Origin: an uncultured Thermoplasmata archaeon
GTDB taxonomy: Archaea; Thermoplasmatota; Thermoplasmata; Lutacidiplasmatales; UBA184
DNA: 64,000 nt
Reading direction: 5' to 3'
Assembly (NCBI GenBank): GCA_963842165.1
Contig: CAWJFK010000023.1
Span: 110,817-174,816 of the forward strand
The notes beneath the pieces were generated by a model. It did not search any database. It was given only the letters and a program-made list of their open reading frames with translations, and was not told where the DNA came from. This document shows, piece after piece, positions 7,305-64,000 of this stretch. The first letter of the stretch is position 1. Each line of letters starts with the position of its first letter. The position numbers and the translations under genes are program-made.

Positions 7305-8494
7305 CTAGAGGAACGCCTCGAACTCCTTCGTGATCTCGGGGTACTTGTCGTGGACGGCTCTGAGGATGTTGTGCACGTTCAGTTTCTCGAGCTTGACCCC
7401 GAGGAGCGCGTCGATGACCTTGTCGAACGTCTCGTCCGAGAGCGTCGTGAGCTTCTCCTTCGCGAGCCAGTTGCGGTAGAGCTTCTCCTCGAGGCGAACG
7501 CGCCAGCCCTTCTCGTACTTGTCGAGGACCTTGGTCGACGCGTCGCCGGAGTGGACGGCTTCCGCCGCGACCGTGCCGCAGATCTTCCCCGCGATGCATC
7601 CGTTCGCGATGCCGCCTCCCGTGAGAGGGTCGATCATCCGGGCCGCGTCCCCGACGATCATGAACCCGTTCAGGATCGTCTGCTTGAGGGGGGGAGCGAT
7701 GGAGACCCCGCCGCCGACCATGTCGATCTTCTTCCCCTTCGCGTAGGCGGGGTGGTGGTCGATCCAGGCATCCAGGTACGACCGCGCTTCGGCCATCGAC
7801 TTGATCTGGCTGACCTGCACGCCGATCCCGACGTTCGCGAGACCCTCCGCCTTCGGAAAGATCCAAACGTACCCCCCGGGGCGACCTTGCCGAGGTAGAA
7901 ATCGCAGTAGCGAACGTCGCAGTCGACGTTCGTCATTCGGTACTGGAGGCACGTGTCCATGTCGCGCAGCGCGAGGTTGGTCGAGATCCCCGCCCAGCGA
8001 CCGACCTGACTTTCGAACCCGTCGGCGCCGATGGTGACCTTCGCGTGGACGTCGAAGGTCGTGCCGAACTGCTTGACCTTCGCGCCGACGACGCTGCCGT
8101 TCTCCTTCAGGATGCTGGTCGCGGCGGTCTTGAGGCGAACCTCGACGCCCTCGTTCGCGGCGTCGATCGCCAGCTGCTTGTCGAACTCCGAGCGCTCGAC
8201 GACGTAGCCGACCTCGTTGCCGGCCTGCTTCTCGTTGATCTCGAAGATCCGCTCGCTGGGCGAAAAGATACGGGCCCCCTCGACCTCGAGGTTGATCCAG
8301 CGGCCGGGCTTGATCCCGACGTCGGGCAGCCAGTCCTTGCTCATCCCCTCGCCGCACCGGACGGGGCTGCCGATCTCCTGGCGCTTCTCGATCATGAGGA
8401 CCTTCGCGCCGTGCTTGGCCGCCCACTTGGCGGTCATGCTGCCCGCCGGTCCCGCACCGATGACGAGGACGTCCGTCGTCAGGTCCGCGGCCAT
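7305..8494 (-). CDS. Digeranylgeranylglycerophospholipid reductase (geranylgeranyl reductase); indel near 7875
   Basis: DVLVIGAGPAGS, PVRCGEG, GADGFES, PGGYVWIFPK, VGDAARMIDPLTGGGI. Confidence 0.93.
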
Positions 8495-10596: not shown

Positions 10597-13500
10597 CTAC
10601 CGGGTCCGGCCCCGGTCCGACTCGCGGCCCTCCCGCTGGAGCTCCCGGACCCACTCCTCGCCCTCCTTCCTCTTCTGCTCGAACCGATAGCGGGTGTACC
10701 CCCACACTCCGGCCAGGGAGGCCAGGACCGCGGTGATCAGGGAGACCGCGACGACCAGCGGGACGGTCCACGTCGCGGCGATCGTGCCTTCGGGGGCCGG
10801 ACTGGTGTAGCTCACCGAGACCGGATTCGGGGCCGCCCCTTGGACGGTCAGGGTCGAAGCCGAGAGGGAGACCCGGTATCCTGCCGGACCGGTCGCTGTC
10901 AGGGAGTACGACCCGTCGGGCAGCCGGAGGGTGATCTGGGATCCGGTCGATTGACCGGACGTCACGGCCTGGGTGGCCTGGTTGACCGCCGTGACCGTCC
11001 AGAAGGACCCGGTGGGCAACCCGGACTCGAGGAAGAACGCGGGGAAGGTGCTGTTCGAAAAGGCCACCGCGACCACGACGAGCGCCCCGTCGACGATGAC
11101 CTGCGGCGAGTAGTTCGCCGTGTAGCCGACCACCCCGCTCACGTTGAGGACGTAGGTCCCGTTCGGGACTCCAAAGGAGAGCGTGGTCCCCGCGGAGGAG
11201 AGGGTCGTCCCGCCGAGGGTTGCCGACCAGTCCGTGCCGTTCGCCAGGCCCGATTCTACGACGTCCACCCCGTAGACCAACTCGCCGGTCGCGTAGGAGA
11301 TCTGGACGATCACGGCCGTGCCGGAAAGATTCACCCACCCGAGGCTCGGCGACGGAAGGTAAGAAGAGACGCTTCCCACGAAGAACTGGTACGTCCCGTT
11401 CACCGCCGCGAACGAGATCGTCGGGCCGGTCGAGCTGAGGTTCGACCCGCCCAGGTCGACCTGCCACGCGGTGCCGGAGGGGAGTCCGGTCTCCTGGAAC
11501 GCGACCGTGTAGGAGGGACCCGAGGAGGCGTAGGAGAGATTCACGGCGGGGACCGGACCTCCCGCCACGATCACCGTGCCGTTGTTGGGGGTCGGGAAGT
11601 ACGTCGTCAAGCCGTACGAGGCGAACGCCTCGTACCAGTACGTTCCGTTCGGATCGTCGATCACGATCGTGTTCGAGTTCGTTCCCGCCCACTGGCCGGA
11701 GAGGTTCACGGACCAGCTCCACCCCGAGGGCAGACCCGTTTCTTGGAACGTCACTGGGTAGGTGACGATTCGTACGAACGTCACGATCACCGTCAGGTTG
11801 GCCCCGGCCACCACGAACAGGCCGGAGACGTTGACGGCGGCGTACGTTCCGTTCCCGTTGATCTGGAAGAAGTACGTCCCGTTGGGCTCACCGAAACTCA
11901 GGGTAGAGACCGGGGCCTGGGCGTATTGCCAGGAGCCGTTGACCCCGACCGACCAATTGGTCCCGCTGGGCAGGTCGTTCCCGTCGTTGAACGTCACGAC
12001 ATACCAGGCGGGGCCGGAGAAATTCAGGTAGACCTGGGTGGACTGGCCGCTGACCAGTACCCAACCTTCCGAGGACGGAAGGCTGTACCCGGCGCGTCCG
12101 CCGGTAACCACGTAGAAGTAGCTCCCGTTGGGCTCGTCGAATTGGAGCCAGCCACCGGTGGTGGTCCGGACGGCCCCCCCGACAAAGACCGACCACGAGG
12201 TACCCAGTGGCAGGCCGTTCTCCGTGAACTCGAGGCCGTACAGCGGGGGGTTCGCGGTATACGTGATGTACACGGTCGTCCCGTTCGGGCCCACGGTGAC
12301 ATTGCCCGCGGCAGGGGACGGGAAGTACGTCCCGCTCGAGGAAACGCTGTACTGGTACGGGACGGTGGCGTTCGGCTGCACCATGAACTCGAGCGGATTC
12401 GAATCGCCGCTCTGGGCGAGCTGGTCCGCACCGATCGTCACGCCCCAGTAGGTTCCGTTCGGGAGCCCGGTTTCCTGGAATACGAGCGGCACCCCCGGCG
12501 GAGGACTGGTCCCGAGGAACTGTGCGCACTCGAACGTCGTGTTGGCCGTGTTGGTGACGCAGACATCCCCGGTATCGGGGTCGTACACGACCCCCGACGG
12601 GTCGAAGGTGAGGACCGCGTAGACCGACTCGTTGGCCGTCGAAATCACGACGAGCGGGTTGAGGCCGCCGCCGACCCACATCATCCCGTCCGCGGGGTCG
12701 TAGGCGATCCCCTGGAGGTCCAGCGGAAAACTCGAGTTGGTGGACACCGGAATAGTAAGGACACTGAGGAAGGAGCTGCCCGAAATGACGCTGACGTTGT
12801 CGGACCCCTGGTCCGTGACGTAAACGTTGTCGGTCGCGGTGTCGACCGCCACGCCATAGGGTCCCTGGTCAACCGTGACGTTGGCGAGGCGCACTCCGGT
12901 GGATCCCGAGATGACGGTCACGTTGTTGGAACCGTAGTTCGCGACGAAGACATCCCCCGTGGAAGGGTCGGCGGCGATTCCGATGGGATCCGACCCGACC
13001 GGCACGCTCGCGAGGAGGGTGAGAGTCGAGCCGGAGATGATCGAGACGTTCGCGCTCCCGTTGTTGGCGACGTAGATGTCCCCGTTCACGGGGTCGAACG
13101 CGACGCCCGTGGGGCTCGTTCCGACCAAGATCGTCGCAATCGGAGCGGTGTCGTTGCCGGAGAGGGCGCTGACATTGTCCGAGCCGGAATTGGCGACAAA
13201 GATGTCACCGGTGAGATTGTCGTACGCGACACCGAAGGGATTCGAACCCACCGGGATGGTCTCGCTCACAATAGGATTCCACGTGAAATTCCCCGGCACG
13301 ATGTCGACACTCGAAGGGGGAACCGCGACGTAGAACGATTGGTCTGCGTTGTCGTAGGCCAACCACGCCGGGGGCCCGGGAAGATACCCGGGGGGCGTGG
13401 GATTCAGTGCCACGGTAGCGAGGCGGTGGTGCGGGAGGGTGGCGAGGGGATGGGCCACCGCCGGAGCCGCCACGCCCGGAGGAGCGGCCACGTCGGACAC

Positions 13501-13683
13501 GGGGTGAGCGGCGGCGAGAGTCGCCCCGCTCCAAGATCCGACGGAGGCCAGGAGGACGATCAGGGCCACCCCCAGGACCCAGCCGGCAACGACGGTCGGG
13601 GGAGCCGGTGCATTCAGGACAGGATGGGCAGCCCGGGGCGAGGGCATCGGGACGGTTCCAATCCTCGGCCGATCCGCGCTCAT
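10597..13683 (-). CDS. Cell-surface protein: YVTN/YncE beta-propeller, thermopsin-type Ig-like repeats, C-terminal TM
   Basis: Signal-like hydrophobic segment; repeats VGSNPFGVAYD...IFVANSGSDNVS; repeats VTFQETGLPSGTxWSV...PNGTY; TM plus basic tail. Confidence 0.85.
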   Translation of the reverse strand: MSADRPRIGTVPMPSPRAAHPVLNAPAPPTVVAGWVLGVALIVLLASVGSWSGATLAAAHPVSDVAAPPGVAAPAVAHPLATLPHHRLATVALNPTPPGYLPGPPAWLAYDNADQSFYVAVPPSSVDIVPGNFTWNPIVSETIPVGSNPFGVAYDNLTGDIFVANSGSDNVSALSGNDTAPIATILVGTSPTGVAFDPVNGDIYVANNGSANVSIISGSTLTLLASVPVGSDPIGIAADPSTGDVFVANYGSNNVTVISGSTGVRLANVTVDQGPYGVAVDTATDNVYVTDQGSDNVSVISGSSFLSVLTIPVSTNSSFPLDLQGIAYDPADGMMWVGGGLNPLVVISTANESVYAVLTFDPSGVVYDPDTGDVCVTNTANTTFECAQFLGTSPPPGVPLVFQETGLPNGTYWGVTIGADQLAQSGDSNPLEFMVQPNATVPYQYSVSSSGTYFPSPAAGNVTVGPNGTTVYITYTANPPLYGLEFTENGLPLGTSWSVFVGGAVRTTTGGWLQFDEPNGSYFYVVTGGRAGYSLPSSEGWVLVSGQSTQVYLNFSGPAWYVVTFNDGNDLPSGTNWSVGVNGSWQYAQAPVSTLSFGEPNGTYFFQINGNGTYAAVNVSGLFVVAGANLTVIVTFVRIVTYPVTFQETGLPSGWSWSVNLSGQWAGTNSNTIVIDDPNGTYWYEAFASYGLTTYFPTPNNGTVIVAGGPVPAVNLSYASSGPSYTVAFQETGLPSGTAWQVDLGGSNLSSTGPTISFAAVNGTYQFFVGSVSSYLPSPSLGWVNLSGTAVIVQISYATGELVYGVDVVESGLANGTDWSATLGGTTLSSAGTTLSFGVPNGTYVLNVSGVVGYTANYSPQVIVDGALVVVAVAFSNSTFPAFFLESGLPTGSFWTVTAVNQATQAVTSGQSTGSQITLRLPDGSYSLTATGPAGYRVSLSASTLTVQGAAPNPVSVSYTSPAPEGTIAATWTVPLVVAVSLITAVLASLAGVWGYTRYRFEQKRKEGEEWVRELQREGRESDRGRTR

Positions 13684-35476: not shown

Positions 35477-38400
35477 GTGATGCGGGCTAACATGACGCAG
35501 GGTCGTCGGAACCTCTGGGTCGCGTTGGCCGTTGCCGCGTTAATGGTCGTCTCCTCGAGCCTGGTGATCGGGGGAGCGATTGCCCCCCTCACTCAGGCTA
35601 CGGCGGCGTCGATCACTCCATCGCCCGCCCCTGCAGCAAATTCTGCCTCGATATCCGCGGCTCCGACGCATGAGGGTCTTGGCGTTGACTCGGCCCGGGC
35701 CGCTACGGTGCAAGCGGACGAACAGGCTCTCGCGGCCAACGGGTACTCTTCCTCGCAGTTCCTCCCTCCGAACCTCCATCAAGCTCCTCCCATGTCGCAA
35801 ACGGCCGGTGTCGTTACGCCGCTTTACTCGGTGGCGCCGGCTCCCACCGGAGTCGCCTACTACGGACTCAACGACACGAACGGCCAGGTGGTCGCTTCCA
35901 CTGTAAACACCACGAGCCTTCAGGCGACGTTCTCGACGAGCGATCCGATCGGCGTTCAGACCGAGGGGTTTGATTTCGGGACTCAAACGGCGTACGGCGC
36001 CCAGCTGAACGCCGTCCTCACGAACGTTACTCTTTTCGGGCAAACCTCGTTCCCCGCCAACCCCAACGCGCCGACCGGGTGCACGATTGGAACGGGCAAT
36101 GCCCCGAACTGCCCGAACGAGTTCTGGTTGCAGAACGTGATCGGCTACAACACGGCGACCCACGTGCTCTCCTTCGAAAACAACATCTGGAACTTCTCCA
36201 ACCCCTCGGGGGCCTGGTCCAGTGGAACGAACGCCGTCCAAGGCTTCTCCACCCCTCGCGGCGGATTCTACGCGGTGGGGGGTCCATCCATCACGATCTC
36301 CTATCCGTTCACCCTCGCCCTCTACCTCAACACCACGCGGGGTCCCTGCCATCTGGATACCACTCCCGGTTCGGGGGTCCCGTCGTGCGGCACCGTTAGC
36401 ACGACCGCACCGGTGAACGAAGTGTTCTTCAACTACACCGTCTGGAATTCGCTCGGGCAGAAGGTCTGCCCGGGGAGCCCGGGAACCGGCAAGGTCTGCG
36501 GCGAATACGATGACGTCTTCTTCAATTCGGTCAGCCCGTCGGTCAACCCGCTCGGAGTTCCGGAGTACGGACCGAGTGGCCGGATCGGCTCCGCCACGAT
36601 ACAGGCCAACGGGAGCTCGTACGATCCGCTCGGTCTTACCAACGATTACGAAATGGACTGGGGCATTGGATCCAGTAGCGGTGCCACAACGAACGTCGTC
36701 TACGCCGACGCGACGGTCGGAATCAACTACTGTACCTCGGCGGACACGACCCCCACCGGATCTTGCACTGCCTACAGCACCCCCCCCGCGGCGTACGACT
36801 ACGGTGGGGAAACGGGGGAGACCAACACTGGGGCATTGAGCTTCTGGGCCCCGCAGGCCACCGCGGGGGGAGCCCCGTTGTATGTTGCGACGGGGACTCC
36901 GGTCGCACACTTCGTGATGGGACCTTCTCTGCTGCTCGGACTCTGGAACGCGACCGGCGGCCCCTATCCGGCTGGGTCCGGGGCATATCCGCTCAATTTC
37001 GCGAGCATCTCCCCCGCCAACGCCTGGGTGGGGATCGCACCGGGGACGAACCAGACCAACCAGTCGCTGTTCCAAGTGGCTCCGACGTTCGGATGGTACT
37101 CCGGATGGTCCGGTTCGGGAGGCGCACCCACACCCACAACGTTGGGCCAGAACCTGTACCTCCCCCCGGGCCTCTACACTGTCGAAGTGCTGTTGAGCGG
37201 CTACAACCCGTACATCGGCAACGTGGACCTTCGAACCTCAGGACAGACTCCCGTGATTTCCCTAACCCACAACCTGGGAACGGGAGTCTATACTCCCCTG
37301 TGGGCCTACAGTAGCTCCGACCTAGCGAACATCTCGCTCAACTACGGAGGGTTCGGTCTCGGGAGCCCAGGAAACCCATACCTCCTGCAGAACGCCGCTC
37401 CTACCGTCGGCGCGCCGTTCGGAGTGTCCGGTTCGGTCTCCTGGCTCTTTTCGAACCTCAACGACTACCTCTTTACGACGTGGATTGGCGAGTACATCAA
37501 TGCGACGGCATCCTACGCAGAATCGAATCCCGGGCCGTCGTTCCTGATGGACTACCCCAGCTGGCAGGTCCCGACCCTGCTCTTCTTCGGGGTGCCGACG
37601 ACCGACCAGTTCCAGTTTTACTTCTACCACACCCAGAACTTCACGCTCGCCGGAACGTCCCACATCTACGCGTGGGCCAACAGCCAGGCCACCACGCTCT
37701 ACAGCGTCGTCTGCAATGCGTGTCACAACGACCTGATTGCCGACAACGCGTTCGCGGTGTCGGACCGGGGGCTCGAGTTCATCAACGGGGGAGGAACCCT
37801 CCCGCTCGGAAATGCCCTGCTGAATACTCGGAACGTGGTCTGGGGGAATACCTTCGTCCCCGACCCCCAACCCGCGTTCCCGGGACTGATCTCGCCCTCG
37901 ACAGGGCTGGTCGCGAGCGAGAGCTTTGACCGCATCTTTAACAACGAGTTCTACACCAACGGGACGGCCACGTCGTCGGGAACGAACTCGAACTTCTGGA
38001 ACGTGACCTGCCAGTCGGGCTACGCGCCCCTGACCCAATCCTCGTACCCCGGATCGATTGTCTGCCAGCCGGGGTCGTTCGTCACTTCCTATCTGGGGTT
38101 CGCCCTCACCGGCAGCATCATCGGCACGGCCTACCAGGGTGGGAACTTCTGGTTCAATTACGGGAACGCGGCCAACCCGTTCGCCAACATCCCTTACGTG
38201 GCGCGCTCGTCCAGCATCTCGTCCTCTGCAGGAATCGCCGCGTCGGCGAACCCATACCGCGGCGACTACGCCCCGCTCATCTCGTACACGGTTTACGACC
38301 CGAACTTTGCCGAGACCGGGCTACCGATCTCGGGCACCGGCACCACCAGTGCGACGGCGTTCCAAGTGCGTGTAGTGAACGCGACGGGGTACGGATGGCT

Positions 38401-41400
38401 GAACGACACCCAGACCGCCGTGCCCACGGCGCTCTGCTCCGGCAACCCGTGCGTAGTGTTCTATCTACCCTCCGGAAGTTACACCTATACCGGATTAAGT
38501 GGCCTGACGGGCACGCTCGCATCGGCCGCGAACCCCGCGACCGGCTCGTTCTCGATCAGCGGTGCCCCGGTCGGGCTCGTGACGACCTTCGCCTTCGGTC
38601 TGTCGCACGCCGTGACATTCACCGAGACCGGCCTCCCGAGCGGAACGCACTGGTCGGTCAGCATCACCGGCCAAACGACGCTGACCAGCACGACATCATC
38701 GATCGTGTTCAACCTGGCTAACGGTGGGTACCTCTACACGGTCGCGGGAGTGACGGGGTATCTCACAACCAACCCGTCCGGCACCGTCACTGTGAGCGGA
38801 GCGGCCGTTCCGGTCAGCGTCCCCTTCTACCCGCTGCTGACCCCGGCGGGCGCCCCCTCGGTCAGCGCTCCCGCGCTCGACGTCGACCAAGCGCTTCTCG
38901 TAACGGGAACGATCCCGACGACCGGAGTTCCGAGCTACGCCTGGCAATGGCTGGTGTCGGTGAACGGAGGCTCGTACGCCTCGGCCACCCAGTGCGCGGC
39001 CAACAGCGGCTCTGGAGCGTCCGCGGGCGCGACCGAGTCCTGCTCGGTCACTGGCGGCACGCTCACGATCGGCGACACGTACGCGTTCGAGATGCAAGTC
39101 ACGGATAGTGCGTCGGAGAGCCAGACGTCGATCGCGTCTCCGACCGTGACCGTCGCGTCCGCCCTCACGGCCCCGGCGGCGCCGGCCGTCAGCGCCACGA
39201 CGCTCGACACCGACCAGGTCCTGTCCGTCACGGGAACCATCCCTTCGACCGGGACCTCGTCGTATGCCTGGACGTGGCTCAACTCGGTGAATGGGGGATC
39301 CTACGCCACCGCCACCCTGTGCTCGACCAACGGCGGGGTGGGCGCGGCTGCCGGAGCACCCGAGACCTGCTCGGTTCCCTCCGGCTCGCTCGCGGGAGGC
39401 GACACGTATGCCTTCGAGCTCCAGGTCGCGGACAGCGCTACCTCGCCGGAGACGCAGACGTCAACCGGATCGGCCACGGTGACCGTCGCGCCCGCCTTGA
39501 CCGCCCCCGGGGCGCCGGTCGTGAGTGCGACCGCGCTGGACGGGGACCAAGCGCTCACGGTGACCGGAACGATCCCTTCCACCGGCACCCCCTCCTATGC
39601 GTGGACCTGGCTGGTGTCGGTGAACGGAGGGTCGTTCGCCGCCGCCACCCAGTGTGCCGTCGATGGCGGAACCGGCGCCTCGGGTGGGGCGATCGTCACC
39701 TGTGCGATCTCGGGCGGAACGCTCGTGACCGGGGACTACTATGCGTTCGAACTACAGGTTACCGACGGTGCGAGCTCGGGCGAGACCCAGACATCGTCCG
39801 CCTCCTCGACCGTGACCGTCGCCACCTCGTTGACGTCCCCTGCGGCTCCCTCCGTGAGTGCGACCTCGCTGGACGTCGACCAAGCGCTGACGGCGACGGG
39901 CACCATCCCCTCGACGGGAACCGCCCCGTACGCGTGGTCCTGGTTGGTCTCGGTGAACGGCGGCTCCTTCTCGAGCGCCAGCCTGTGCGCCACGAATGGC
40001 GGCGCCGGAGCCGGGGCGCTCGCGACTGGAGACCTGCTCGGTCACCGGAGGCTCGTTGACGGTCGGGAACAACTACGCATTCGAGCTTCAGGTCACGGAC
40101 AGTGCGACCACGACCGAGACCGCCACCTCGACGACCTCACCTACGGTGACGGTATCATCGGCGCTCACGGCGCCCGCGGCCCCGTCGGTGGGCGCGACAT
40201 CGTTGGACGTCGACCAGACCCTCGGCGTGACGGGCTCGGTCCCCTCCACGGGGACGTCGCCGGTCAGCTGGACGTGGCTGGTGTCGGTGAACGGCGGCTC
40301 GTACGGCACCGCGACCCAGTGCACCGTCAGCAGCGGCACGGGGTCCGGCCCGTTCGGTTGCTCGATCCCCGGGTAGTACGCTCACTGCCGGCGACATGTA
40401 CGCCTTCGAGTTGCAGGTCACGGACAGCGCGACCTCCGCGGAGACGCAGACCTCCGGCGCGTCATCCTTGGTGACCGTGGCGTCGGCCTTGACGGCCCCA
40501 GGCACACCGATAGGGAGCGCAACGGCGCTGGATGTCAACCAAGCGCTCGCTCTGACGGGAACCGTCCCCGTGACCGGAACAGCCCCGTACTCTTGGACCT
40601 GGCTCGTGTCGGTCAACGGCGGCTCGTATGCCGCCGCGACCGAGTGCGCTGTGAGTGGCGGATCCGGAGCCTCGGCGGGAGCGACGGAGACCTGCTTGGT
40701 CGGGGCGAACGTGCTCACGGTGGGCGACACGTACACGTTCGAGCTGTTCGTCACCGATTCGGCGCAGACGGCCGAGACCCAGACCTCGAGCCCCTCCGCT
40801 ACGGCGACCGTGGCCTCGGTGCTCAAGGCTCCCTCCTCACCGACCCCGAACCGCCCCGCCTTGGACGCTGACCAGGTATTGACCGTCTCCGGAACGATTC
40901 CCTCGACCGGAACGGCGCCGTACTCCTGGACCTGGCTGGTCTCCGTCAACAGTGGCGCGTTCGTCCTGGCGGCGCAGTGCTCGGCGAGCACCGGTACGGG
41001 AGCCTCGGCCGGTGCGGTCGTCAAGTGCACGATCGCAGGCGGAACGCTGACGGTCGGAAGCTACTACAACTTCGAGCTGGAGGTCACCGACAGCGCCACC
41101 GCGGGGGAGACGCAGACCTCGCCGACGTCCCTTCAGACGGTGACCGTGTCGTCGGCGATGGCGGCTCTCGCGACTCCGTCCGTGAGCGCGACCCGGTTGG
41201 ATGTGAACCAAGCGTTGACCGTGACCGGGACGGTCCCCTCCACCGGAACGTCCCCGTATGCCTGGACTTGGATGGTGTCGGTGAACGGTGGGTCGTACGG
41301 CGCCGCAACGGTTTGCAGCGTCCCCAGCGGTACGGGAGCCTCGGGAGGTGCGACCGTGACCTGCTCGATCGCCGCCGGAGCCCTGACGGTCGGAGACCAC

Positions 41401-42930: not shown

Positions 42931-43032
42931 AGCCAGCTCGGACCGGCCCGACGGTGGCCCGACCGATCACCGTCGTATGCGGTCCCCGCCGGACCCCAGG
43001 GGGCACGGGGGGCGGCCAGAAAGGTGGGTCGA

Positions 43033-43050
43033 CGGGCCCGAGGGGACTCG
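43033..43050 (-). repeat. tRNA 3'-end fragment, putative att site
   Basis: Minus strand CGAGT-CCCCT-CGGGCCC-G fits tRNA positions 56-73; coincides with the composition change. Confidence 0.65.
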
Positions 43051-43692: not shown

Positions 43693-45295
43693 GTGGCGAA
43701 CCGTCGAAGCGAATCTATGACTCCTCCCGCCTCGCGAGCAGAGGTAGAGTCTGACCCCGTGGCCAGCGCGATTGGCCGCGCGGGAATGACGGGAATCACA
43801 CTGAAGCAACTCGCCACTGTGACCAGCTTGGCCCCCGATAGGGTCGCCCATCGTGTAGAACGATTGGCGGCCGCTAAGACGATTGCCCGCCACGGACGGG
43901 GACTGTGGGTGTTGAGTCGATTTGCTGTAGGAAGTCCGGCGCCATCCTCGTTTCGTGGCCCCGACTGGTTCTCGGGCGCATTCGAAAGGCAGTTCACCAT
44001 CAAGATTGGACGGCAGGCAGGGGAGATTCAGTTCAATCCTAATGAGAAGCGGCCGGTCCATCGCTGGTGGCCATACGTTCAGGGGTTCTCGGCCGGATTC
44101 GTGGAGCTTACTTGCCGACGGTTTGGGGCGGCTCGTGGTTCTGTCGTGCTTGACCCATTTTGTGGTAGTGGAACCGTGCCGGTTACCGCCCGCTCACTCG
44201 GTGCCCTGGGTATCGGCGTTGACATGATGCCGGTAGCCGCGTTCGTTTCCGCGGCCAAGGCGGAATGGGAGACCGATCCCGAGGCGTTCTGGAAGGCTGC
44301 GATAAGTGTCATCGGAAACCGTGGTGACCCGACCATCGCCAAGCCATTCCTGAAGGAGACGGAACGGCAGTTTGAGAAGGATGTTCTGCGCTCGCTCCTG
44401 AAACTCAAAGAGAGTGTGTGGTCAGTGAAGGAAGGCCCGGTCCAGACATTGCTTAAGCTCGTGTTCGCGAGCATTCTGATTGACTGTAGCAATCTGAAGC
44501 GAGCGCCATGTCTAGGCTACACGCGTAAGCTCGGCCTGACGGCGGACACTCCGTATGACTTGTTCCGAGCTTCGGCCGGACGAATCAGAGATGATCTCCG
44601 TCTTCTCCAGAGGGAGCCCGAGAGATGGGGACCGAAGCCTCAGATTAGTTTGGGTAGTTCAGCTGAGGTCGAGCTCGGAACTGAGACGATAGATCTCGCA
44701 ATCACTAGCCCGCCGTACGTGAACGGGATGGATTACGTAATGAACTACAAGATCGACCTTGCATGGCTAGACTACATCCACTCGTACGAGGAATTGGCCC
44801 AATTGCGCGCCTCGATGGTGGCGTGCGACAACATCCCGAGAAGCACCGCGGCGAACCACAGGCCTTCCGGATTCGTTCGTTCGGATGAATGGTTGAGTTC
44901 TATCGCTCAAAGCGTATCGAAGAACATCGGTGCGAAGGGGGCGTATCGAGCGCGACGACATGGCAGCAATCGTGACCAAGTACTTTGACGACTTGGTCCC
45001 CGTCGTTCAGAATGTCTACAGAGCCCTCAAACCGGGCGGCCGTTTTGTGGTTGTGAACGGAGACTCACTGATCGCTGGAACCTACGTGCCCGGCGACATG
45101 ATTTTTGCCCGTCTTGCCGCTCAAGCCGGCTTCATTGTCGAGGCCTGCGACGTTGCTCGTGAGCGTCGTTCGGGACAGCGGCGCGGATTCATACTCCGGG
45201 AATCTATCCTTACTCTCCGGAAGCCCGGTCCGTACTCTCCCCCGCGTTCTGTCCGCCCGGTTCACGAACTGGAGGACTTTGACCCACCGAACTGA
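43693..45295 (+). CDS. Amino-type DNA methyltransferase (probably N4-cytosine) with N-terminal wHTH; indel near 44950
   Basis: VHRWWPYVQGFS, VLDPFCGSGT (motif I), ITSPPY (motif IV), LKPGGRFVVVNGDS, LRESIL. Confidence 0.88.
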
Positions 45296-54505: not shown

Positions 54506-56649
54506 GTGCGCGCTTCAGTTACCGCGGTAATGGCCGCCCTGATCGTTCTCTTGGGAGCCTCAACTCTGGCCCCGATTTGGGAGGAACAGTTAGGCGATGG
54601 GAACGCTCCTGTGGGCCACCAGTACGGCTCGGCCTCATCACTGCCGATGCAGGGTAGGTCATCTAGCGTCCGAGATGGTGCTAAGACAGGCGTAATGGAC
54701 CCGAAGTCGGCAGGAAGTCAGCCGACGAAGTGTCTGCTTGGTGGCAGCCACGATTCTGGGTGCGGCGAATTGTTGAGCAGCAGGAGCTCGACATCTGCGT
54801 CCGGCCCGGTTTGGACAAATCTCAGCACCCCGGGCGGGCCACCCCCCCTCTATGATCTCTCGATGGGATATGATGCAGGCGACGATCAGACCGTCGTTTT
54901 TGGAGGATTCAACCCTGCGGCGACTGCGGTCAGCTATACTTGGACTTTCACCAATGGGACGTGGACGAATCTAAGCCCCCAGCTCACTCAGTTCCCTTCC
55001 GCTCGGGGTGGCATGTTAATGACAGACGACCCAACCGATGGGTACCTCCTCGCATTTGGGGGTAATGGGATGGCTTGTTCTCCCTCGGAATATTATGGTT
55101 GCGCAGACACATGGACCTTCGAAGGCGACTCTTGGAGCTTGACTAATGCAAGTGCACCGATTCCAGCGGCAGGAAGAACTGGATTTTCGATGGCGTTCGA
55201 CTCTTCGTCGTCTTACGTCCTGCTCACTGATGGGTGGGCTACTTGGAAGTGGTCAGGAGCGAATTGGACGCCATTTTGCGCCAGCCCCTCTAATTGTACT
55301 TTGTTCATACCTGGTCCGGACATGACTGGGTCCCTAAGCGACGACCCGGCCCTCGACGGCCTACTGTGGTATGGCGCTGGATTCACCTGGGTTTTTGCGT
55401 CGGGAAACTGGACAAACGTCTCGGCGACCGCGGGACAAGCACCCTCTGGCGCCAACGGACAGCTTGTCTATCCCCCCGCCTCGGGGGTCCCACTTCTCGT
55501 GGTGACGGGGGGCTATAGCCAAAACGTGACGCTAGACCAATTCGCTAACGACAGCTGGACAGTTGTCTCAAGCGGGTTTTCGCCTCCCGCCCGTTCCGAG
55601 GCAGGTATTTCGTACGCTGGTTCGGCAGCTGATATCCTGATGTTCGGCGGCTGGAACCTCTTCGGGCCCACACGAATCTTGAACGAGACTTGGGCATGGG
55701 GGTCGAGCCCGCCAATTAGCGGGCTCAACATCTTCGTTCAGCCGACGGTCCCTGAGCCAGCGCAAGTGGCGACTTTCAACGAATCCTTCGTCGGCGGTGT
55801 TGCCCCTTTCGGATACTCTTGGGGCTTCGGAGATGGAAACACCAGTTTCGTCCCAACTCCTATTCACAGTTTCGACGCAATCGGGCACTACTCAGTCCAG
55901 CTATGGGTCAACGACAGTGGCGGGCACCACGCATTCGCCCAACTGACCGTCAAAGTTTACGTTCCGCTTTCGATCCGAGTACTTCCGGGTGTCCCCCGCC
56001 ATTCCTGCGCTGGGTCAGCCGGTGAATTTCTCGGTGCTGGCCACTGGTGGGACGCAGCCGTACCTTTACTCGTGGTCATTCGGGGACGGAGGGACGGGGG
56101 GAGACCTTCCTAACATTACCCACCTCTACACGACAAACGGCCCATTTTACGCCCAGGTTACTGTGACTGACGGTCTTGGAGCCACGGTCAAATCAGGGCA
56201 GAACCTGTCCATCCGCCTCCAGGCGATTGCTGGGATCGAGCCTTCGAATTCTAGCTCGCCTCTTACGGTGGAATTCATCGGGCAAGCCCAGGGTGGCGTT
56301 CCGCCATATACATTCGACTGGTCATTCGGAGATCATTCCCCAAACTCGACCTAGCCAGAATCCGACCCACTCATACTCCTTCGCAGGGGAATATGTCGTG
56401 CGGCTCTCCATCACCGATGGAGCGGGGAACCGATCCACTAGTGAACTTTCTCTTCAAGTGGGGGCTGAGTCGACTAGTCCAGTCGGGCCGTCGGGAAGCA
56501 CGTGGTGGGGCTGGCCCCTTGCCCTAGGGCTGACGGCCGCTGTGGGGGTGGGTGTTGCAGGTGCATGGGTGATTACGTTCAGGAGACGACGATCGCTGCG
56601 GAGTGAGGTTAAACGCTGGGTGGACGAGCTCTTGAACGAGGAGCCTTAA
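54506..56649 (+). CDS. Cell-surface protein: Kelch-like propeller, three PKD domains, C-terminal TM; indels near 55980 and 56350
   Basis: Signal peptide; VVFGG...TWTF...WT repeats; GGxxPYxYSWxFGDG repeats; TM plus RRRR tail. Confidence 0.85.
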
Positions 56650-57349: not shown

Positions 57350-58649
57350 GTGTACCCAAACGTCCGCGGCGGCGGTCGTGAGACCGCAACAAGGGGAGCT
57401 CGCCACCGAGAGAAATATCCACCGACCCAGCACGCCCGTCGGCGAACCCGACCGCTCACCGATCGGGAGGTGCGCCGTCAGGCGCATCATTGGCTCCTCC
57501 CCCTACTCGCCTCCGCCCTCGCCAGCCCGTTCTCCTCGCCGGTCCGCCGCGGCGTCGCCGACCTGATCCTTCGCGCCTCGGCCCAGCGGCTTTCAGTCAC
57601 CCGGGCCCGGGCTCACTCTCGTCAGGGTCCTTCGGACCGACACGCCCGTCGGGTGCTCCAACAACTCGACCTCGGCCGCACTCAGCATGCGCTGACGCGC
57701 GCCTTGCGCGAACAAGCTCGGCCGTACGTCCCTCGCCACCCGGTCGATGTCGCCCTCGGCTTCTACGACATCCACTACTACGGCGGGCCGATCGACCCGG
57801 CCCACCCGCAATTCGTTAAGACGCAGGAGTCCCGCGGGACCCACCGGACCTACCACTACGCCACCCTCGACCTGCTCCTGCCGAACTTCCGGCTTACGGC
57901 ATCGGTTCGCTACGTCCGCGAGCGGGGCCACCGCCGCCGAGCGGTCGCCCGGGCGCTCGAGGACACCCGGCGGTGCGGCGTCCAGGTCCGCCGCCTCTAC
58001 CTGGACCGCGAGTTCTACGAATACGATACCTTGAGCTGGCTGAAGGCCGAAGAATACACGGTCCTTACCCCCCATGCGCTTGGGTTCGAGACAGCGCAAG
58101 AAGTGGGAGCGGGGCCAGTGCTCCTACGTCACCGAGCACACCCTTCGAGACCCTCGGCGGAGGGGCGAGTCCCTCGGCTTACGGATGCATGTGGTCGTCC
58201 GCTACCAGAAAGGGAAGAAGTGGAACAAGCGAGGAGCGCAGTACCTCGTCTACGAGGTGATCGGCCACGTGGCGAACGATGCGATCCGCGACGTCCCTCT
58301 CCACTCGACCCATGCCCTCTACCGAAGGAGGTTCGGCATCGAGACGTCGTACCGACTGCTCGGTCAGGCGCGAGCGATCACGACCAGTCGGTCCCCGGCG
58401 CTCCGACTCCTCTACGTCGGGGTCTCCCTGCTGCTCCAGAACGAGTGGGTGATCCTCAAGCTCCGATTTACGAGCGAAGGACGGCAAGGCCCGACAGGGT
58501 TTGTCGTCCACGAAGAGTTGTTGCGGTTCGCCACACTCCTCGAGTGGCTCGCGAGCGCGGTGGCCCGACGACTGGGTTCAACTCGAGAGATCTATCGTCC
58601 GGGGCGGTTCCCCCATCGCCTCCGCGCGATGGGGATCGCACCCATGTGA
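57350..58649 (+). mobile_element. ISH3-family (IS4-like) DDE transposase; indel near 58070; element ends not identified
   Basis: DIHYYG, RGTHRTYHYAT, LYLDREFY, YRRRFGIETSYR. Confidence 0.85.
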
Positions 58650-58664
58650 GCCGCGGCTACCTTC

Positions 58665-59357
58665 TTGACCTCGGTCGAGGTCAGGAATGGCATGCCCCGA
58701 GCAGGGTCTCAAGCGAATAGCCGGCGAGTGCCGTCCTCCCCCCGTACGGCGTACCAGCTTCGGATCACCCTCCTCGGAGCCCGTCCGCCGATCTGGCGAC
58801 GGGTCTGGGTGCCCCCGGGCGAGTCCGCGGAGTATCTCCACGACGTGATCCAGACGGCGATGGGATGGTACGACAGCCACCTCCATCAGTTCCTCCTCGG
58901 TGAGCGACCCAACTACATCTCGGTGGAACCACCGGATCCTGAGAACCTCGGGGATCATCCGAGCGTGGACTCAAGGCACATGCCCATTCGGGCACTTCTC
59001 CAACGAGGCGGTGGTCGTGTTCTCTACAACTACGATTTCGGTGACGACTGGATGCACGAGGTGCGGCTCGAGAAGGAGGTTCCTCTCGAGGAGAGAGCCT
59101 TCCTGCCGCAGTGCCTGGAGGGGAAGAGGGCCTGCCCTCCGGAGGACTGCGGGGGCGTCTATGGCTATGCCGACATTGTGAGGATGCTCAAAGATCCGAA
59201 GTTCAAGCCGGCGGGTAGTTCCCGAGAGGAACTCCTCGAGTGGTTGGGCGACGAGTTTGACCCTGATGCGTTCGATGCAGAGGTGGTGAACGCCCAGTTC
59301 AGGCCGACACGAAGGACCGCACGAAGAGCCCGAACGAAGGTGAAGAAGTCAACCTAG
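58665..59357 (+). CDS. Plasmid pRiA4b ORF-3 family protein
   Basis: YQLRITL...PPIWRR, LHDVIQTAMGWYDSHLHQF, YDFGDDW, RACPPEDCGG. Confidence 0.93.
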   Translation: MTSVEVRNGMPRAGSQANSRRVPSSPRTAYQLRITLLGARPPIWRRVWVPPGESAEYLHDVIQTAMGWYDSHLHQFLLGERPNYISVEPPDPENLGDHPSVDSRHMPIRALLQRGGGRVLYNYDFGDDWMHEVRLEKEVPLEERAFLPQCLEGKRACPPEDCGGVYGYADIVRMLKDPKFKPAGSSREELLEWLGDEFDPDAFDAEVVNAQFRPTRRTARRARTKVKKST

Positions 59358-59411
59358 TCCCCGGTCGGGGATGGCCAAGTACTGGAATCGGGACAGGGTT
59401 GGACCACACTA

Positions 59412-60548
59412 CTGACCGTTCTAGTAGATGCATTGATATCGACGGACCGGCTATCCCCTGGGCGTGGCGCGCTGGGCACAACAGCATCGTGACACGCTCG
59501 TCCTCGAGGAACGACGGCTCAAGGGCCTCCAACTGCTTCGTCAGGGAATTCGACCGGCCGAGGTCGCCCGCCGCTTGGCAGTCTCGCCTCAGGCGGTCGA
59601 TCACTGGAAGCGGCGCCTCGAGACGATGGGCCCGGAGTCCCTTCGCGCCCAACCTCGGCGCGGCCGGCTCCCCTTCGTCGAAGCGAAGAAGATGGCCACG
59701 CTCCCGGCGATCCTGGCGCGCGGCGCCCAGTTGTTCGGATACCAGACGGACCTCTGGACCCTTCGAAGGATCGCGTCCGTTCTCGAGAAGGAGTGGGGGG
59801 TTCGCTACAGCAAGAGCGGGGCTTGGGTCCTCCTCAAACGCACGGGGTACTCGTGGCAGCGACCCTCACGCCAGGCCCGGGAGAAGGATCTCGTCCGGGT
59901 GGCTCATTGGAAGCGCTACACTTGGCCCCGGCTCAAAAAAAAGCCCGGCAGCGTCGAGCGGTAATGGTCTTCGTCGACGAGAGTGGTCTCTCGCTCATCC
60001 CGTACAACGCGAAGACCTGGGCACCGGTGGGGAACACCCCGGTGCTGATCCATCAGGGGCGTTGGCCGAAGGTCTCGGCCATCGGCGGGATCACCTCTCG
60101 AGGCCGCCTCTATCTCAAAGTGCGCAAAGGCTCCATTCGGGGTCCGCAGGTGATCGCCTTCCTCCGGCACCTGCAGCGCCACATCCGGCGGCGGCCGATC
60201 ATGATCTTCTGGGACAACGGCCAACCTCACCGGGCCAAGCTCGTTCGGGCGTTCCTCGAGAAGAATCCTCGGATCGAGGCCCACCGACTTCCGCCCTACA
60301 GCCCGGACCTGAACCCCGAGGAGTGGGTGTGGGCCCATCTGAAGAAGCACGAGCTGGCGAGCTTCGCCCCCCACGACCTGAAGGAGCTGAAGCGGGGCGT
60401 CCGCCTGGCGGTAGTACGGATGCGAGATCGTCCCAAGCTCCTACTGAAGCTCGCCGGCTCCTCGAAGTTGCCCCACTGAATCGCACGAGACGATGTGGTC
60501 AGCACGATCTGCCGTCAGGGAGGGGCAAGACAACTTCTCGACGGTCAG
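59412..60548 (+). mobile_element. IS630-family element, 1137 bp, two-ORF transposase (59464-60479)
   Basis: TA-CTGACCGT...ACGGTCAG-TA ends; HTH ORF plus DDE ORF (FVDESG, WDNG, PPYSPDLNPEE); A-AAA-AAG at 59937-59943. Confidence 0.93.
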
Positions 60549-60713
60549 TAATCTCTGAATCCCCTTCGGAGATCGCCATTATGGCAGCGTCAGCCAACCG
60601 CGAGTCAATTTGGCGGTTCCGAAACCTATCTCGGCTTACGGACCTGAGATTCCGGGTTGCGCCGGTTCTTGAACCCATCCTAATCTATCCGTGCCGCTTA
60701 CCCATTGACTGCC

Positions 60714-62725
60714 TTGACAGCACTTCCGAGTGTTGGCACGGTTTCCGGGGTCGTCTCTTCGGGTACCACGTTCGCCCCTCTCAACCCTCGCCCAGACTGT
60801 CACAGGCGGGGCCATCATCTATCTCCAAGTGGCGATGTATGGGTCATCCCCGAGCGTTAGCTCCATTACTGATTCGCAGGGAGGCGTATACGAGAAGGTC
60901 GTAGCGGGCGCCAACGGCTCAGTCTACATGGCCGTTTACCGCCGCACCAGTCCCTTAGCGGATTCCTCCTCCTCATTCACCGTCGCCGCAACGCCTAGCG
61001 CCTCCGTCCCGATCGAGATGGTCGCCATCGAGGTGTGGAACGACGGAGGGGTCGACACCATGAGCTCCGTCCACTCCGGCACGGGTACCTCCGAGACGTC
61101 GAGCGTGGCGACCTCCGTCACCAATGACCTTGTCCTCTTCCTCGGCGCCGACAACTCCGGCAGTGGGCCAAGCTGGGGATCGGGCCAGACGGGCATCATG
61201 GGGTATCCCGCCACCCCTCCACCCAACGTTACTGCTTGGGGAAGCTACCAATCGCAGGTGTCTCCCGGCACCGCCAACTCGACACGCACTATCTCCACGT
61301 CGAAGGCCTGGGTGGCGGCGAGCATCGCCGTCTCGCCTCAGGTCCCGTGGTCCGCCCTCGCCGGGAAACCGTTCGTGACGGTCTCGTCGATTGGAACATT
61401 GACCACCCCCGCCTCTACCCTCCCCAACAACGGCGCCGACTTCGGCCCCGACACGCCCCTCACTGCCACCAGCGGCATCCAGGAGGCGCTCAACGCGGTG
61501 GTGAATGGGGGAACTGTCTACATCCAGGGCGGAACGTACACCCTTAACGGACCCATCTCGCAGACGGGGAGCTACCAGGTAGTCAATTTCGAGGCGGGCA
61601 CCACGTTGCAGATCGGATCGATGTTCCCGACGTCGGGCCTCGGCACGTGGGCCGGCGTGATCATCGTCGGATGGAACCTGGCGAACACCGAAGCATACCA
61701 CCACTGCTACTGGTACGGCAACGGCACTGTCCTGAACCTCTCCGGGATCCCAAACAACGTTTACGGAATCGCGATCGTCGGCAACGGACCGATGAACGGG
61801 GGCCCAAGCCCGGCTCCATTCATGCTCCGCGTCGATGGGTTCGAGGATCTCCGGAAGCTATGCTCCTGGCGGTAACGATCAGGTCTTCATTGCTTGCGCA
61901 AACGGCAATGGAACGAATCCGACGACTATAGACCAGACTCTCAGGGAAGTAAGGGTCAGTAGGATTTACACACACAACATCGCACCGGGATTCAACGGCG
62001 CCGGGATAACAGTGCGCGGATCCGTCAGGGGAGTTGAAATCGAGGATTGCTTCGTCGATTGTTCATCGGCAGCCGCCACCGATACCTACAACGCGATGTT
62101 CTTTGGCTGCCCACAGGGCGACAATCAAGGAATTGTTGTGAGGAGGACCGTCGTACTGTCCAACGGGACGTCTGGAAACGCACTATTGCTGGCGGGATCA
62201 CTTGACACTGCGGGGCACACCAAAACGCAGGGTGTCCTTCTCGAGGATTGCACGTTTCAGGCAGGTACCTCGGGCACAGCCAATGTTGGGCAGGGTCAAG
62301 GCGGAATTTACGTCACTGACGAACAATCCGTGAACGCCATAAATAACGTAGAGTTCGTGAGGTGTCAGTTCATACGAACTGCAGTGGGGACTTACTCGCT
62401 CAACAATTCAATATTCGGATACCTCAGGTTCCGGAAGGGTTCCATCCCCCCGAACTTTCCTCCTGGCCCGCTTGCCGGTAGAGGTCCGGGGGAGTCCCCT
62501 ACGACAGTCTCGATCGGGGCCAGCTCCCCCGCGACATACATTGCGACGGACGGGTTCGAAATCGACGCCATCGTCACGGGCGGGGCGGTTTCTGGTATCA
62601 CCCTAAACGGCTCGGCTACCTCTGTCGGATTCAACAGTGGAATTATCCGGCTGAGCGACGGGGATTCTCTGACGATTTCGTTCACTCCAGGCTCTGCTCC
62701 GACTGTGACGAAGATTGCGGCCTAG
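60714..62725 (+). CDS. Spike/adhesin-like beta-helix protein, variant A; indels near 60770 and 61846
   Basis: Ser/Thr-rich N-domain, NNGADFGPDT...TSGIQEALNAV, GGTVYIQGGTY, beta-helix-like repeats, short C-terminal beta domain. Confidence 0.6.
61472..61845 (+). repeat. Left arm of perfect inverted repeat (at least 374 bp)
   Basis: Identical to the reverse complement of 63627-64000. Confidence 0.95.
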
Positions 62726-62738
62726 AGCCGGTCACTTC

Positions 62739-64000
62739 CTAAGACGCGATCTTTGTCATTGAGGGGGCAGAGGTGAACGTTACAGTAAGAGCATCCCCGG
62801 ACCTGAGTGGGAAAATTCCCGCCGTTCGACCGGTCGCTCCACCATTAAGAGTGACGGATGAGATGGAACCGCCACTTAGGAGAACCCGTTCATCGAGGCC
62901 ATCCACATTCACGTACTTGTATGGCGAACTCCCAACAGATACGGTGGTCGGACTCTCTCCAGGACCTCGACCTCCCATTGGAGGACTTGGAATGGGGGTA
63001 GGCACGGAACCATCAGTGAAACGAACATAGCCGAACTTCGAACCGGCACTTCGATTGCTCCCTCCACATCCGATGAACTGGCAGCGGACAAAATCCACGT
63101 TCAGGACAAAAGCCGTGCCTTGAGACTGATAGGTTTGTGTGTTGATGTCATCGATATAGATGCCACCGTCGCCGCCTATAGCATGGGACCCGCCAACAGC
63201 AACAAACGTGCAGTCCTGAAACTCGACACCCTGGGTGAGAGTTCCGCCCACACCATCTTGCGTCCCCTGGACCTCCAGTACCTGCTGACCATTATACGCG
63301 GCTCCCGGGGCGGTGGCCACAACACGACGAAATGTGATGCCGTATTGATTCCCTTGTGGGCACGCTATGAAGAGGATGGATGGACCGCCAGTTCCCGTTG
63401 CAGCCGAACCGTCAATGTAGCAATCCTCAACATCGACGCCTCGAACTGAACCTCGAACAGTGAGCCCAGCCGCGCTGAAGTTTGCTGCGAGCCCGTGGAC
63501 GTAGATGTGACTCAGCTTTACGCTGTTGAGGGTCTGAGTGAAGGAGGTTGGCCTCGCACCGTGCCCGTTCGCGCAAGCGATGAAGATTTGGTCTTCGCCC
63601 CCAGACCCGCTGTATGACCCAGAGATCTCGAACCCATCGACGCGGAGCATGAATGGAGCCGGGCTTGGGCCCCCGTTCATCGGTCCGTTGCCGACGATCG
63701 CGATTCCGTAAACGTTGTTTGGGATCCCGGAGAGGTTCAGGACAGTGCCGTTGCCGTACCAGTAGCAGTGGTGGTATGCTTCGGTGTTCGCCAGGTTCCA
63801 TCCGACGATGATCACGCCGGCCCACGTGCCGAGGCCCGACGTCGGGAACATCGATCCGATCTGCAACGTGGTGCCCGCCTCGAAATTGACTACCTGGTAG
63901 CTCCCCGTCTGCGAGATGGGTCCGTTAAGGGTGTACGTTCCGCCCTGGATGTAGACAGTTCCCCCATTCACCACCGCGTTGAGCGCCTCCTGGATGCCGC
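62739..64000 (-). CDS. Spike/adhesin-like beta-helix protein, variant B (5' end outside window)
   Basis: Identical to variant A through RVDGFE, then homologous but diverged. Confidence 0.65.
   Translation of the reverse strand, partial: GIQEALNAVVNGGTVYIQGGTYTLNGPISQTGSYQVVNFEAGTTLQIGSMFPTSGLGTWAGVIIVGWNLANTEAYHHCYWYGNGTVLNLSGIPNNVYGIAIVGNGPMNGGPSPAPFMLRVDGFEISGSYSGSGGEDQIFIACANGHGARPTSFTQTLNSVKLSHIYVHGLAANFSAAGLTVRGSVRGVDVEDCYIDGSAATGTGGPSILFIACPQGNQYGITFRRVVATAPGAAYNGQQVLEVQGTQDGVGGTLTQGVEFQDCTFVAVGGSHAIGGDGGIYIDDINTQTYQSQGTAFVLNVDFVRCQFIGCGGSNRSAGSKFGYVRFTDGSVPTPIPSPPMGGRGPGESPTTVSVGSSPYKYVNVDGLDERVLLSGGSISSVTLNGGATGRTAGIFPLRSGDALTVTFTSAPSMTKIAS
63627..64000 (-). repeat. Right arm of inverted repeat (truncated by window end)
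   Basis: Reverse complement of 61472-61845. Confidence 0.95.

Follow-up and report, generated by a model that had tools for sequence, protein, structure and literature searches.

A convergent pair of beta-helix genes with near-identical 5' halves at the end of a tRNA-Lys integrative island in an uncultured Thermoplasmata archaeon

Genes A and B are two related, convergent genes for predicted beta-helix proteins, encoded by an uncultured Thermoplasmata archaeon of the UBA184 lineage (Lutacidiplasmatales) and found at the end of a 64,000-nt stretch of its DNA, hereafter the window (GenBank assembly GCA_963842165.1, contig CAWJFK010000023.1, positions 110,817 to 174,816; G000:C23:110817-174816 in our own numbering). 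The locus probably represents two complete paralogues with homogenised 5' halves on an island inserted at a tRNA-Lys gene, and not an allele switch of the type known from the phages P1 and Mu and the halovirus phiCh1. A first-pass annotation, made from the letters of the window, had interpreted the same arrangement as a DNA-inversion switch that joins one of two alternative 3' halves to the N-terminus of a spike or adhesin. The repeat anatomy and a putative tyrosine recombinase nearby bear this interpretation out in part, but its switch logic is not supported, since both copies have starts and an exchange would restore the same proteins. The paralogue pair is supported by the completeness of both genes, by public contigs that contradict the frameshift at 61846 in A, by the modular, multi-copy nature of the protein family, and by the lack of an internal recombinase and of attachment (att)-like sites. 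Coordinates are those of the window; the 20 kb around its end are referred to as L004, where an L004 position equals the window position minus 58000 (Table 1).

The inverted repeat is the most conspicuous feature of the locus. A search of 58000-64000 for inverted repeats found 61472-61845 and 63627-64000 to be 100% complementary, while all remaining pairs in this region reach at most 33 nt at 72-77%; these are so short and weak that the long repeat lies far beyond chance. The perfect repeat of at least 374 bp described in the first-pass annotation is therefore real, and it continues past the window end, its gap-free part measuring 1074 nt and a further part 113 nt at 96%. Global alignment sets the arms at ~1176 bp (60670-61845 on the A side against ~64801 to 63627 on the B side), about three times the length visible before, and thereby answers where beyond 64000 the repeat ends. 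The two arms differ by one synonymous substitution (61089, C in A versus T) and one extra T in A at ~60771; the first 1.18 kb of genes A and B are 99.9% identical. Past 61845 the identity drops abruptly, as originally described. The 1781-nt segment between the arms holds the two convergent 3' halves, and their description as homologous but diverged is confirmed by a protein identity of 52% (148 of 284 aligned residues), with stops 13 bp apart (A ends at 62725, the stop codon of B occupies 62739-62741). The open reading frames (ORFs) within 61846-63626 are these two gene halves and their antisense frames, and none of them encodes a recombinase.

Both genes begin inside the arms. They agree in their start and in the 36 bp ahead of it, the shared sequence commencing at this distance from the TTG codon in each. 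Gene A offers two candidate TTG starts, 60705 and 60714, the latter being the one chosen in the first-pass annotation. Residue 1 of the homologues P0001, P0006, P0011 and P0012 aligns to residue 4 of the query, and because the homologues begin there, 60714 is probably the true start of A. Whichever TTG is used, a full N-terminus is predicted for both copies. The idea that B might be a cassette devoid of promoter and start is not borne out, as the sequence beyond the window reveals a complete 675-aa gene equipped with the start of A and its 36 upstream bases.

As assembled, gene A is interrupted by two single-base insertions. These were assessed with Logan contigs from four soil-metagenome runs of two studies, aligned to L004 1500-8500, each contig being too short to span a 1.18-kb arm and hence compatible with either orientation of the middle segment; the alignment as such returned no joints. 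Contig depths on the arms and on the unique parts were noisy (2-8) and were not taken as a guide to copy number. The extra G at 61846 throws the 3' half of A out of frame exactly where the identity between A and B ends. This letter (L004 3845) is missing from the single covering contig in all four runs, and once it is removed A reads ...GFE-ISGSYAPGG..., in register with ...GFE-ISGSYSGSGG... of B; the extra G is an assembly error. The 3' half of A is then an open frame of 293 codons with conserved family motifs. The in-frame exchange of A and B that had been proposed is hence possible in the public contigs, where the frame is intact, but not in the assembly itself. The extra T at ~60771 is carried by no aligned contig. 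Its site on the A side has near-zero cover in four of four runs (bins L004 2670-2903), while contigs without the T cross the equivalent site of the B arm in four runs (records 7, 15, 22 and 30), a comparison tempered by the fact that contigs can drop variants.

Under the favoured reading, a homogenised paralogue pair, the arms would stem from recent gene conversion or from a recent partial inverted duplication. The near-identical 1.18 kb comprise 36 bp of upstream sequence, the size of a core promoter, together with the N-terminal domain and the first beta-helix rungs, whereas the distal beta-helix and the C-terminal domain would be old modules that have diverged. The cell would encode both isoforms together, with a common N-terminal part that may serve attachment or assembly and different distal parts that may bind or cut glycans. 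Long identical arms suit homologous recombination and the 1.78-kb middle may flip; given that start and 5' half do not differ between the two sides, such a flip would regenerate the same two proteins.

A candidate for the recombinase that the first-pass annotation could not see within the window, and proposed to look for beyond it, is present. A putative tyrosine integrase is encoded just past the window end; it matches the integrase family phrog_1 (E 4.9e-8, over 67 residues), and its language-model features in Atlas score 0.98 to archaeal integrase clusters, in one of which 24% of the members carry PF00589. Sequence searches of Pfam, NCBIfam and the PDB gave no match for this ORF, and a genome scan with PF00589 misses it, the nearest PF00589 match being 33 kb away. 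Its presence is explained by the insertion of an island at tRNA-Lys. The integrase adjoins tRNA-Lys(CTT), the 3' end of this tRNA gene is repeated directly as a 16-nt copy at 43031-43046, and the guanine-plus-cytosine (GC) content falls from 0.687 to 0.607 precisely at this repeat, rising to 0.703 beyond the tRNA. Integrase, tRNA, att repeat and GC shift together delimit an integrative island of 24.2 kb that extends from 43031 to ~67277 (L004 9277), and the A/B locus sits at the end that holds the integrase. The possibility that the integrase acts on att-like sites in the arms was rejected: even with up to 3 mismatches allowed, the arms contain no look-alike of the att core. Tandem Repeats Finder likewise returned 0 rows for short tandem repeats in and around the arms (L004 2500-7900).

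How does the locus compare with established inversion systems? In the G segment of Mu and the C segment of P1 the inverted repeats are short, a serine invertase (Gin or Cin) is encoded alongside, and the one constant 5' part lies outside the invertible stretch. Judged by this generally known layout, the likeness consists of a common 5' part and alternative, convergent 3' parts of a fibre-like gene. In contrast, the constant part is here the 1.18-kb repeat itself and is present twice, and the serine recombinase profile PF00239 has no match on contig C23 (matches occur only on C18 and C14). An archaeal precedent is the tail-fibre inversion of phiCh1 and phiH1 (ORF34-int1-ORF36; PhiH1_165/175/185), for which an excerpted account describes a recombinase between the genes, short repeats within the genes and one startless partner (PMC6210493). 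Both cases involve two related, opposed archaeal genes joined by inverted repeats, whose exchange would swap the 3' parts of putative binding proteins. Unlike in the haloviruses, a mere 13 bp separate the two genes, both have starts, tandem repeats are lacking, and no viral hallmark gene was found among the 18 island and neighbouring ORFs scanned. There is apparently no silent, startless partner either: B is complete, A has the same start, and the G break in A is an assembly error. The parallel drawn in the first-pass annotation with the P1 C-segment, the Mu G-segment and phiCh1 is thus supported in its anatomy but not in its switch logic: both copies are complete, the contig has no serine invertase and no recombinase sits between the genes.

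Systematic criteria for bacterial inversions point in two directions. According to an excerpt of Milman et al. 2023, gene-altering programmed inversions, treated there for bacteria only, are associated with four sequence attributes (PMC9881135). The strongest predictor reported is asymmetry, in which one coding sequence (CDS) lacks the region from the transcription start site to the first repeat (PMC9881135, same excerpt). Three attributes are found at the A/B locus, namely a long inverted repeat (~1176 bp), a very short distance between the CDSs (13 bp) and a tail-to-tail layout with repeats near the 5' ends, whereas asymmetry is absent, both CDSs beginning inside the arms with identical starts. 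In Archaea, long identical inverted segments can recombine without a dedicated invertase, as described for Thermococcus kodakarensis TKV2/TKV3 and the integrase of pTN3 in an excerpted report in which the pTN3 integrase recombines identical segments of 104 bp or more (PMC8371274). Those events are large chromosomal inversions between integrated elements, while the candidate here is a 1.78-kb segment inside a gene pair and is known from sequence alone. Chromosomal invertons in Archaea have been only minimally investigated, with 12 putative cases in 42 datasets according to a preprint (bioRxiv 10.1101/2023.03.11.532203). A literature search on Thermoplasmata combined with phase variation or inverted repeats yielded no paper naming Thermoplasmata among the 10 results listed of 401, which does not prove absence from print.

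The strongest rival to a homogenised pair is a phase-variation switch, in which the 1.78-kb segment flips back and forth, either through homologous recombination or aided by the integrase, just one of the two 5' sites is expressed and the A and B modules alternate. Several points weigh against our preferred reading and in favour of this one. Besides the three attributes shared with bacterial inversions, a putative tyrosine recombinase is encoded just ~1 kb from the right arm, and arms of this length lie within the range that the pTN3 integrase reportedly recombines. Past position -36 the upstream contexts of the two 5' sites diverge, one facing an IS630 element 120 bp upstream of A and the other the integrase, so that the two sites could be regulated differently. 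If, moreover, the extra T at ~60771 were real, the left site would be silent and the locus would have the asymmetry that a switch should show. On the other side stand the start codon and 36 bp of upstream sequence in both copies, a segment without an internal recombinase or clusters of short repeats, arms without an att-like site, an integrase with an evident role at tRNA-Lys, and relatives in which the paralogue pairs are arranged otherwise. On balance we consider a phase-variation switch unlikely. Its specific form, a reversible flip in a soil Thermoplasmata with only one active 5' site, set by upstream context or by a true frameshift on the left, and with distal glycan-binding modules alternating on a shared N-terminal anchor, is by a shade the more doubtful. 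If true, an uncultured archaeal lineage would possess a phase-variation system that is both chromosomal and gene-altering.

The quality of the assembly raises a different concern. The bin that represents the source genome has 30 contigs, a completeness of 68.84% and many one-base errors, and in the absence of long reads an exact 1.18-kb repeat poses a difficulty for assembly; differing arms could have been homogenised by polishing, or the inverted duplication could be a mis-join. Against this, contigs of all four runs match the arms with 0-1 differing letters (records 2, 7, 10, 15, 18 and 22), run X1 shows just 2 substitutions over all aligned sequence, and the unique flanks of the two sides differ. 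The joint between arm and A half is bridged in two runs (X1 record 2, X5 record 27), the tail-to-tail joint between the 3' ends of A and B in three (X1 record 4, X2 record 12, X5 record 29), and the joint between right arm and flank in one (X5 record 31), which crosses the arm boundary at L004 6801-6803 where the contigs of three runs end. Bridged joints and near-exact contigs on the arms make an assembly artefact of either kind highly improbable.

Single-base errors are a separate matter. Five further one-letter excesses of the assembly lie in the same 7 kb (L004 7140, 7201, 7252, 7354 and 7718; six including the G of gene A). Beyond the island, the valyl-tRNA synthetase (ValRS) gene is broken over three frames, its catalytic domain (PF00133) being divided between two of them (profile positions 2-183 and 184-404) and the anticodon domain lying in a third ORF; the lysyl-tRNA synthetase (LysRS, PF00152) is split over two frames at profile positions 172 and 185, and an aldo-keto reductase is truncated, beginning at profile position 105. 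As essential genes nearby are equally broken and the one-base excesses are contradicted by contigs, frameshifts in this genome are presumed to be errors, and one-base frame breaks in this assembly should mostly be read as such and not as biology. Gene A as a decaying pseudogene, the copy being lost after a recent duplication, would explain two frame breaks in assembled A beside an intact B, but is barely credible given that the G is absent in all four runs, the T appears in no aligned contig and its counterpart is crossed without it (with the proviso made above), the surrounding essential genes suffer the same fate, and the A half stays open over 293 codons with its family motifs conserved.

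The proteins themselves belong to a family that has yet to be characterised. An AlphaFold model based on 30 aligned sequences (mean predicted local distance difference test score, pLDDT, 84.9) predicts an N-terminal beta-sandwich (residues 9-211), a right-handed beta-helix (~250-590) and a C-terminal beta-sandwich (605-675). Foldseek matches with probabilities of 0.99-1.00 include GH87 glucanases, AlgE mannuronan epimerases and phage tailspikes, besides alginate and polysaccharide lyases and tailspike-like proteins of Caudovirales; with this model, the predicted parallel beta-helix would place A and B among the right-handed, pectate-lyase-like beta-helix proteins. Template modelling (TM) scores normalised to the query are low (0.14-0.28) because the query is multi-domain, and phage proteins of ~220 residues and of unknown function match one domain well (0.65-0.75 normalised to the target). 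At the sequence level, residues 250-309 match the tail spike family phrog_2234 (E 1.9e-6), while searches of Pfam, NCBIfam and the PDB gave no match for A or B. The architecture is reminiscent of mosaic phage tailspikes and depolymerases, in which the N-terminal part is likewise conserved and the distal part variable, and whose beta-helix folds match; unlike these, A and B have no visible viral context or Pfam or NCBIfam family model, and their neighbours are Kelch/PKD proteins and winged helix-turn-helix (wHTH) proteins with a transmembrane (TM) segment. The boundary of identity at residue 380 falls within a beta-helix strand (372-382) and off any domain border, which speaks for a crossover guided by homology and not for a designed joint.

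Relatives are found mostly in the same class. Among 7999 scored candidates there are 35 homologues, all without a functional name, two of which carry PF13229 or PF22842; many share just the N-terminal 265-290 residues (52-64% identity), and some hold that domain two or three times. The family has a match in 33 of the 186 genomes of the order, and of the 29 loci found in named genomes 23 bear the title Thermoplasmata or Thermoplasmatales; viral and metagenome contigs yielded no relative with the peptide patterns used. The family is uncharacterised and largely confined to Thermoplasmata. At least two copies occur at five loci, convergent in G000 (the genome studied here) and G035, divergent in G069, and on the same strand in G183 and G182. 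Three different arrangements fit an expansion of paralogues and not a single design dedicated to inversion. The convergent pair of G035 (G035:C5, L025 7474-15669) is 79-93% alike over the whole gene (~2.3 kb), which indicates patchy homogenisation elsewhere in the family; between its members lie two PKD-domain genes, of which one is fused to a TM-wHTH domain. The G069 pair, on the other hand, shares only 143 nt at 79%. Multiple, patchily homogenised paralogues are a habit of the family; what sets this genome apart is the near-perfect half-gene repeat.

The neighbourhood of the family is also recurrent. Within the fetched flanks of 25 distinct loci (six fetched twice and counted once), Kelch/PKD proteins occur at 15, a wHTH protein at eight and a homologue of the island integrase at three. 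One or more beta-helix paralogues together with Kelch/PKD and TM-wHTH proteins, and sometimes the integrase homologue, form a module that is seen repeatedly in metagenome-assembled genomes of Thermoplasmata (L025, L026, L027, L028, L036, L039, L041, L042, L045 and others). This module may be a family of integrative elements with surface-protein cassettes.

Table 1. Features of the A/B locus and its surroundings (window coordinates unless L004 is given)
Feature	Position	Strand	Remarks
Gene A, full-length paralogue	60705-62725	+	probable start TTG 60714; frame breaks in the assembly: extra T ~60771, extra G 61846
Gene B, intact, 675 aa	62739-64000 in the window, start ~64766 (L004 4739-6766)	-	open frame without stops
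Left arm	60670-61845	+	codons 1-380 of gene A and the 36 bp that precede its TTG at 60705
Right arm	63627-64000, cut by the window end, reaching ~64801 (L004 5627-6801)	-	near-identical to the reverse complement of the left arm
Variable 3' half of A	61846-62725	+	distal beta-helix rungs and C-terminal beta-sandwich (predicted); GC 0.559
Variable 3' half of B	62739-63626	-	GC 0.561
13-bp spacer between convergent stop codons	62726-62738	.	from alignment; spanned by contigs of 3 runs
Left att repeat, 16 nt	43031-43046	+	exact partner in the 3' end of tRNA-Lys(CTT), ~67262-67277, beyond the window
Putative integrase ORF, 417 aa	~65819-67072	-	~1 kb beyond B, beside tRNA-Lys(CTT)
IS630-family insertion sequence, ends approximate	59400-60550	+	HTH_33, DDE_3; single copy in the genome
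Frame-broken ValRS, LysRS and aldo-keto reductase	L004 12654-19995 (~window 70654-77995)		just beyond the island

The remainder of the island carries a mixed cargo. A DNA methylase, a GIY-YIG protein, an OLD-type ATPase-TOPRIM protein and a GHKL ATPase-like protein are defence-like, and a glycosyltransferase, a Kelch/PKD surface protein, a wHTH protein, the IS630 element and a PRiA4_ORF3 gene complete the list. The methylase (N6_N4_Mtase, 43693-45295) is seemingly divided into two ORFs (43693-44988 and 44930-45295), a split that may result from an assembly indel, and the Kelch/PKD protein (54506-56649) extends over three overlapping frames (54506-56113, 55989-56354 and 56176-56649), probably the pieces of a single gene disrupted by an error of this sort. 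Upstream of gene A lies a cluster of mobile elements (57350-60550), composed of a broken transposase-like frame (57350-58720), the PRiA4_ORF3 protein (58665-59357) and the IS630 element. The transposase of the latter is in two frames (59464-60479), and related contigs end loosely at L004 2550. The IS630 element was considered as the cause of the left border of homology and rejected, as its end near 60550 lies ~120 bp short of the arm, which begins at 60670. An 80-nt stretch (~65400-65490, L004 ~7400-7490) of the 1-kb non-coding DNA that separates B from the integrase is conserved next to the integrase homologue in another genome (L040 11869-11952); it matches in three frames, which suggests conservation at the DNA level, and contains nothing that Rfam reports at its gathering threshold. 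Outside the island, two very long ORFs were noted (35477-40474, 1665 aa, and 10597-13683, 1028 aa).

The importance of the locus is lower than the first-pass annotation had hoped, because it lacks the silent-copy asymmetry that makes an inversion a switch. If the convergent pair is what it appears to be, it would provide a clean example of a modular, surface- or glycan-directed protein family diversifying in uncultured soil Thermoplasmata, with an N-terminal part kept identical by recombination and distal parts that are swapped.

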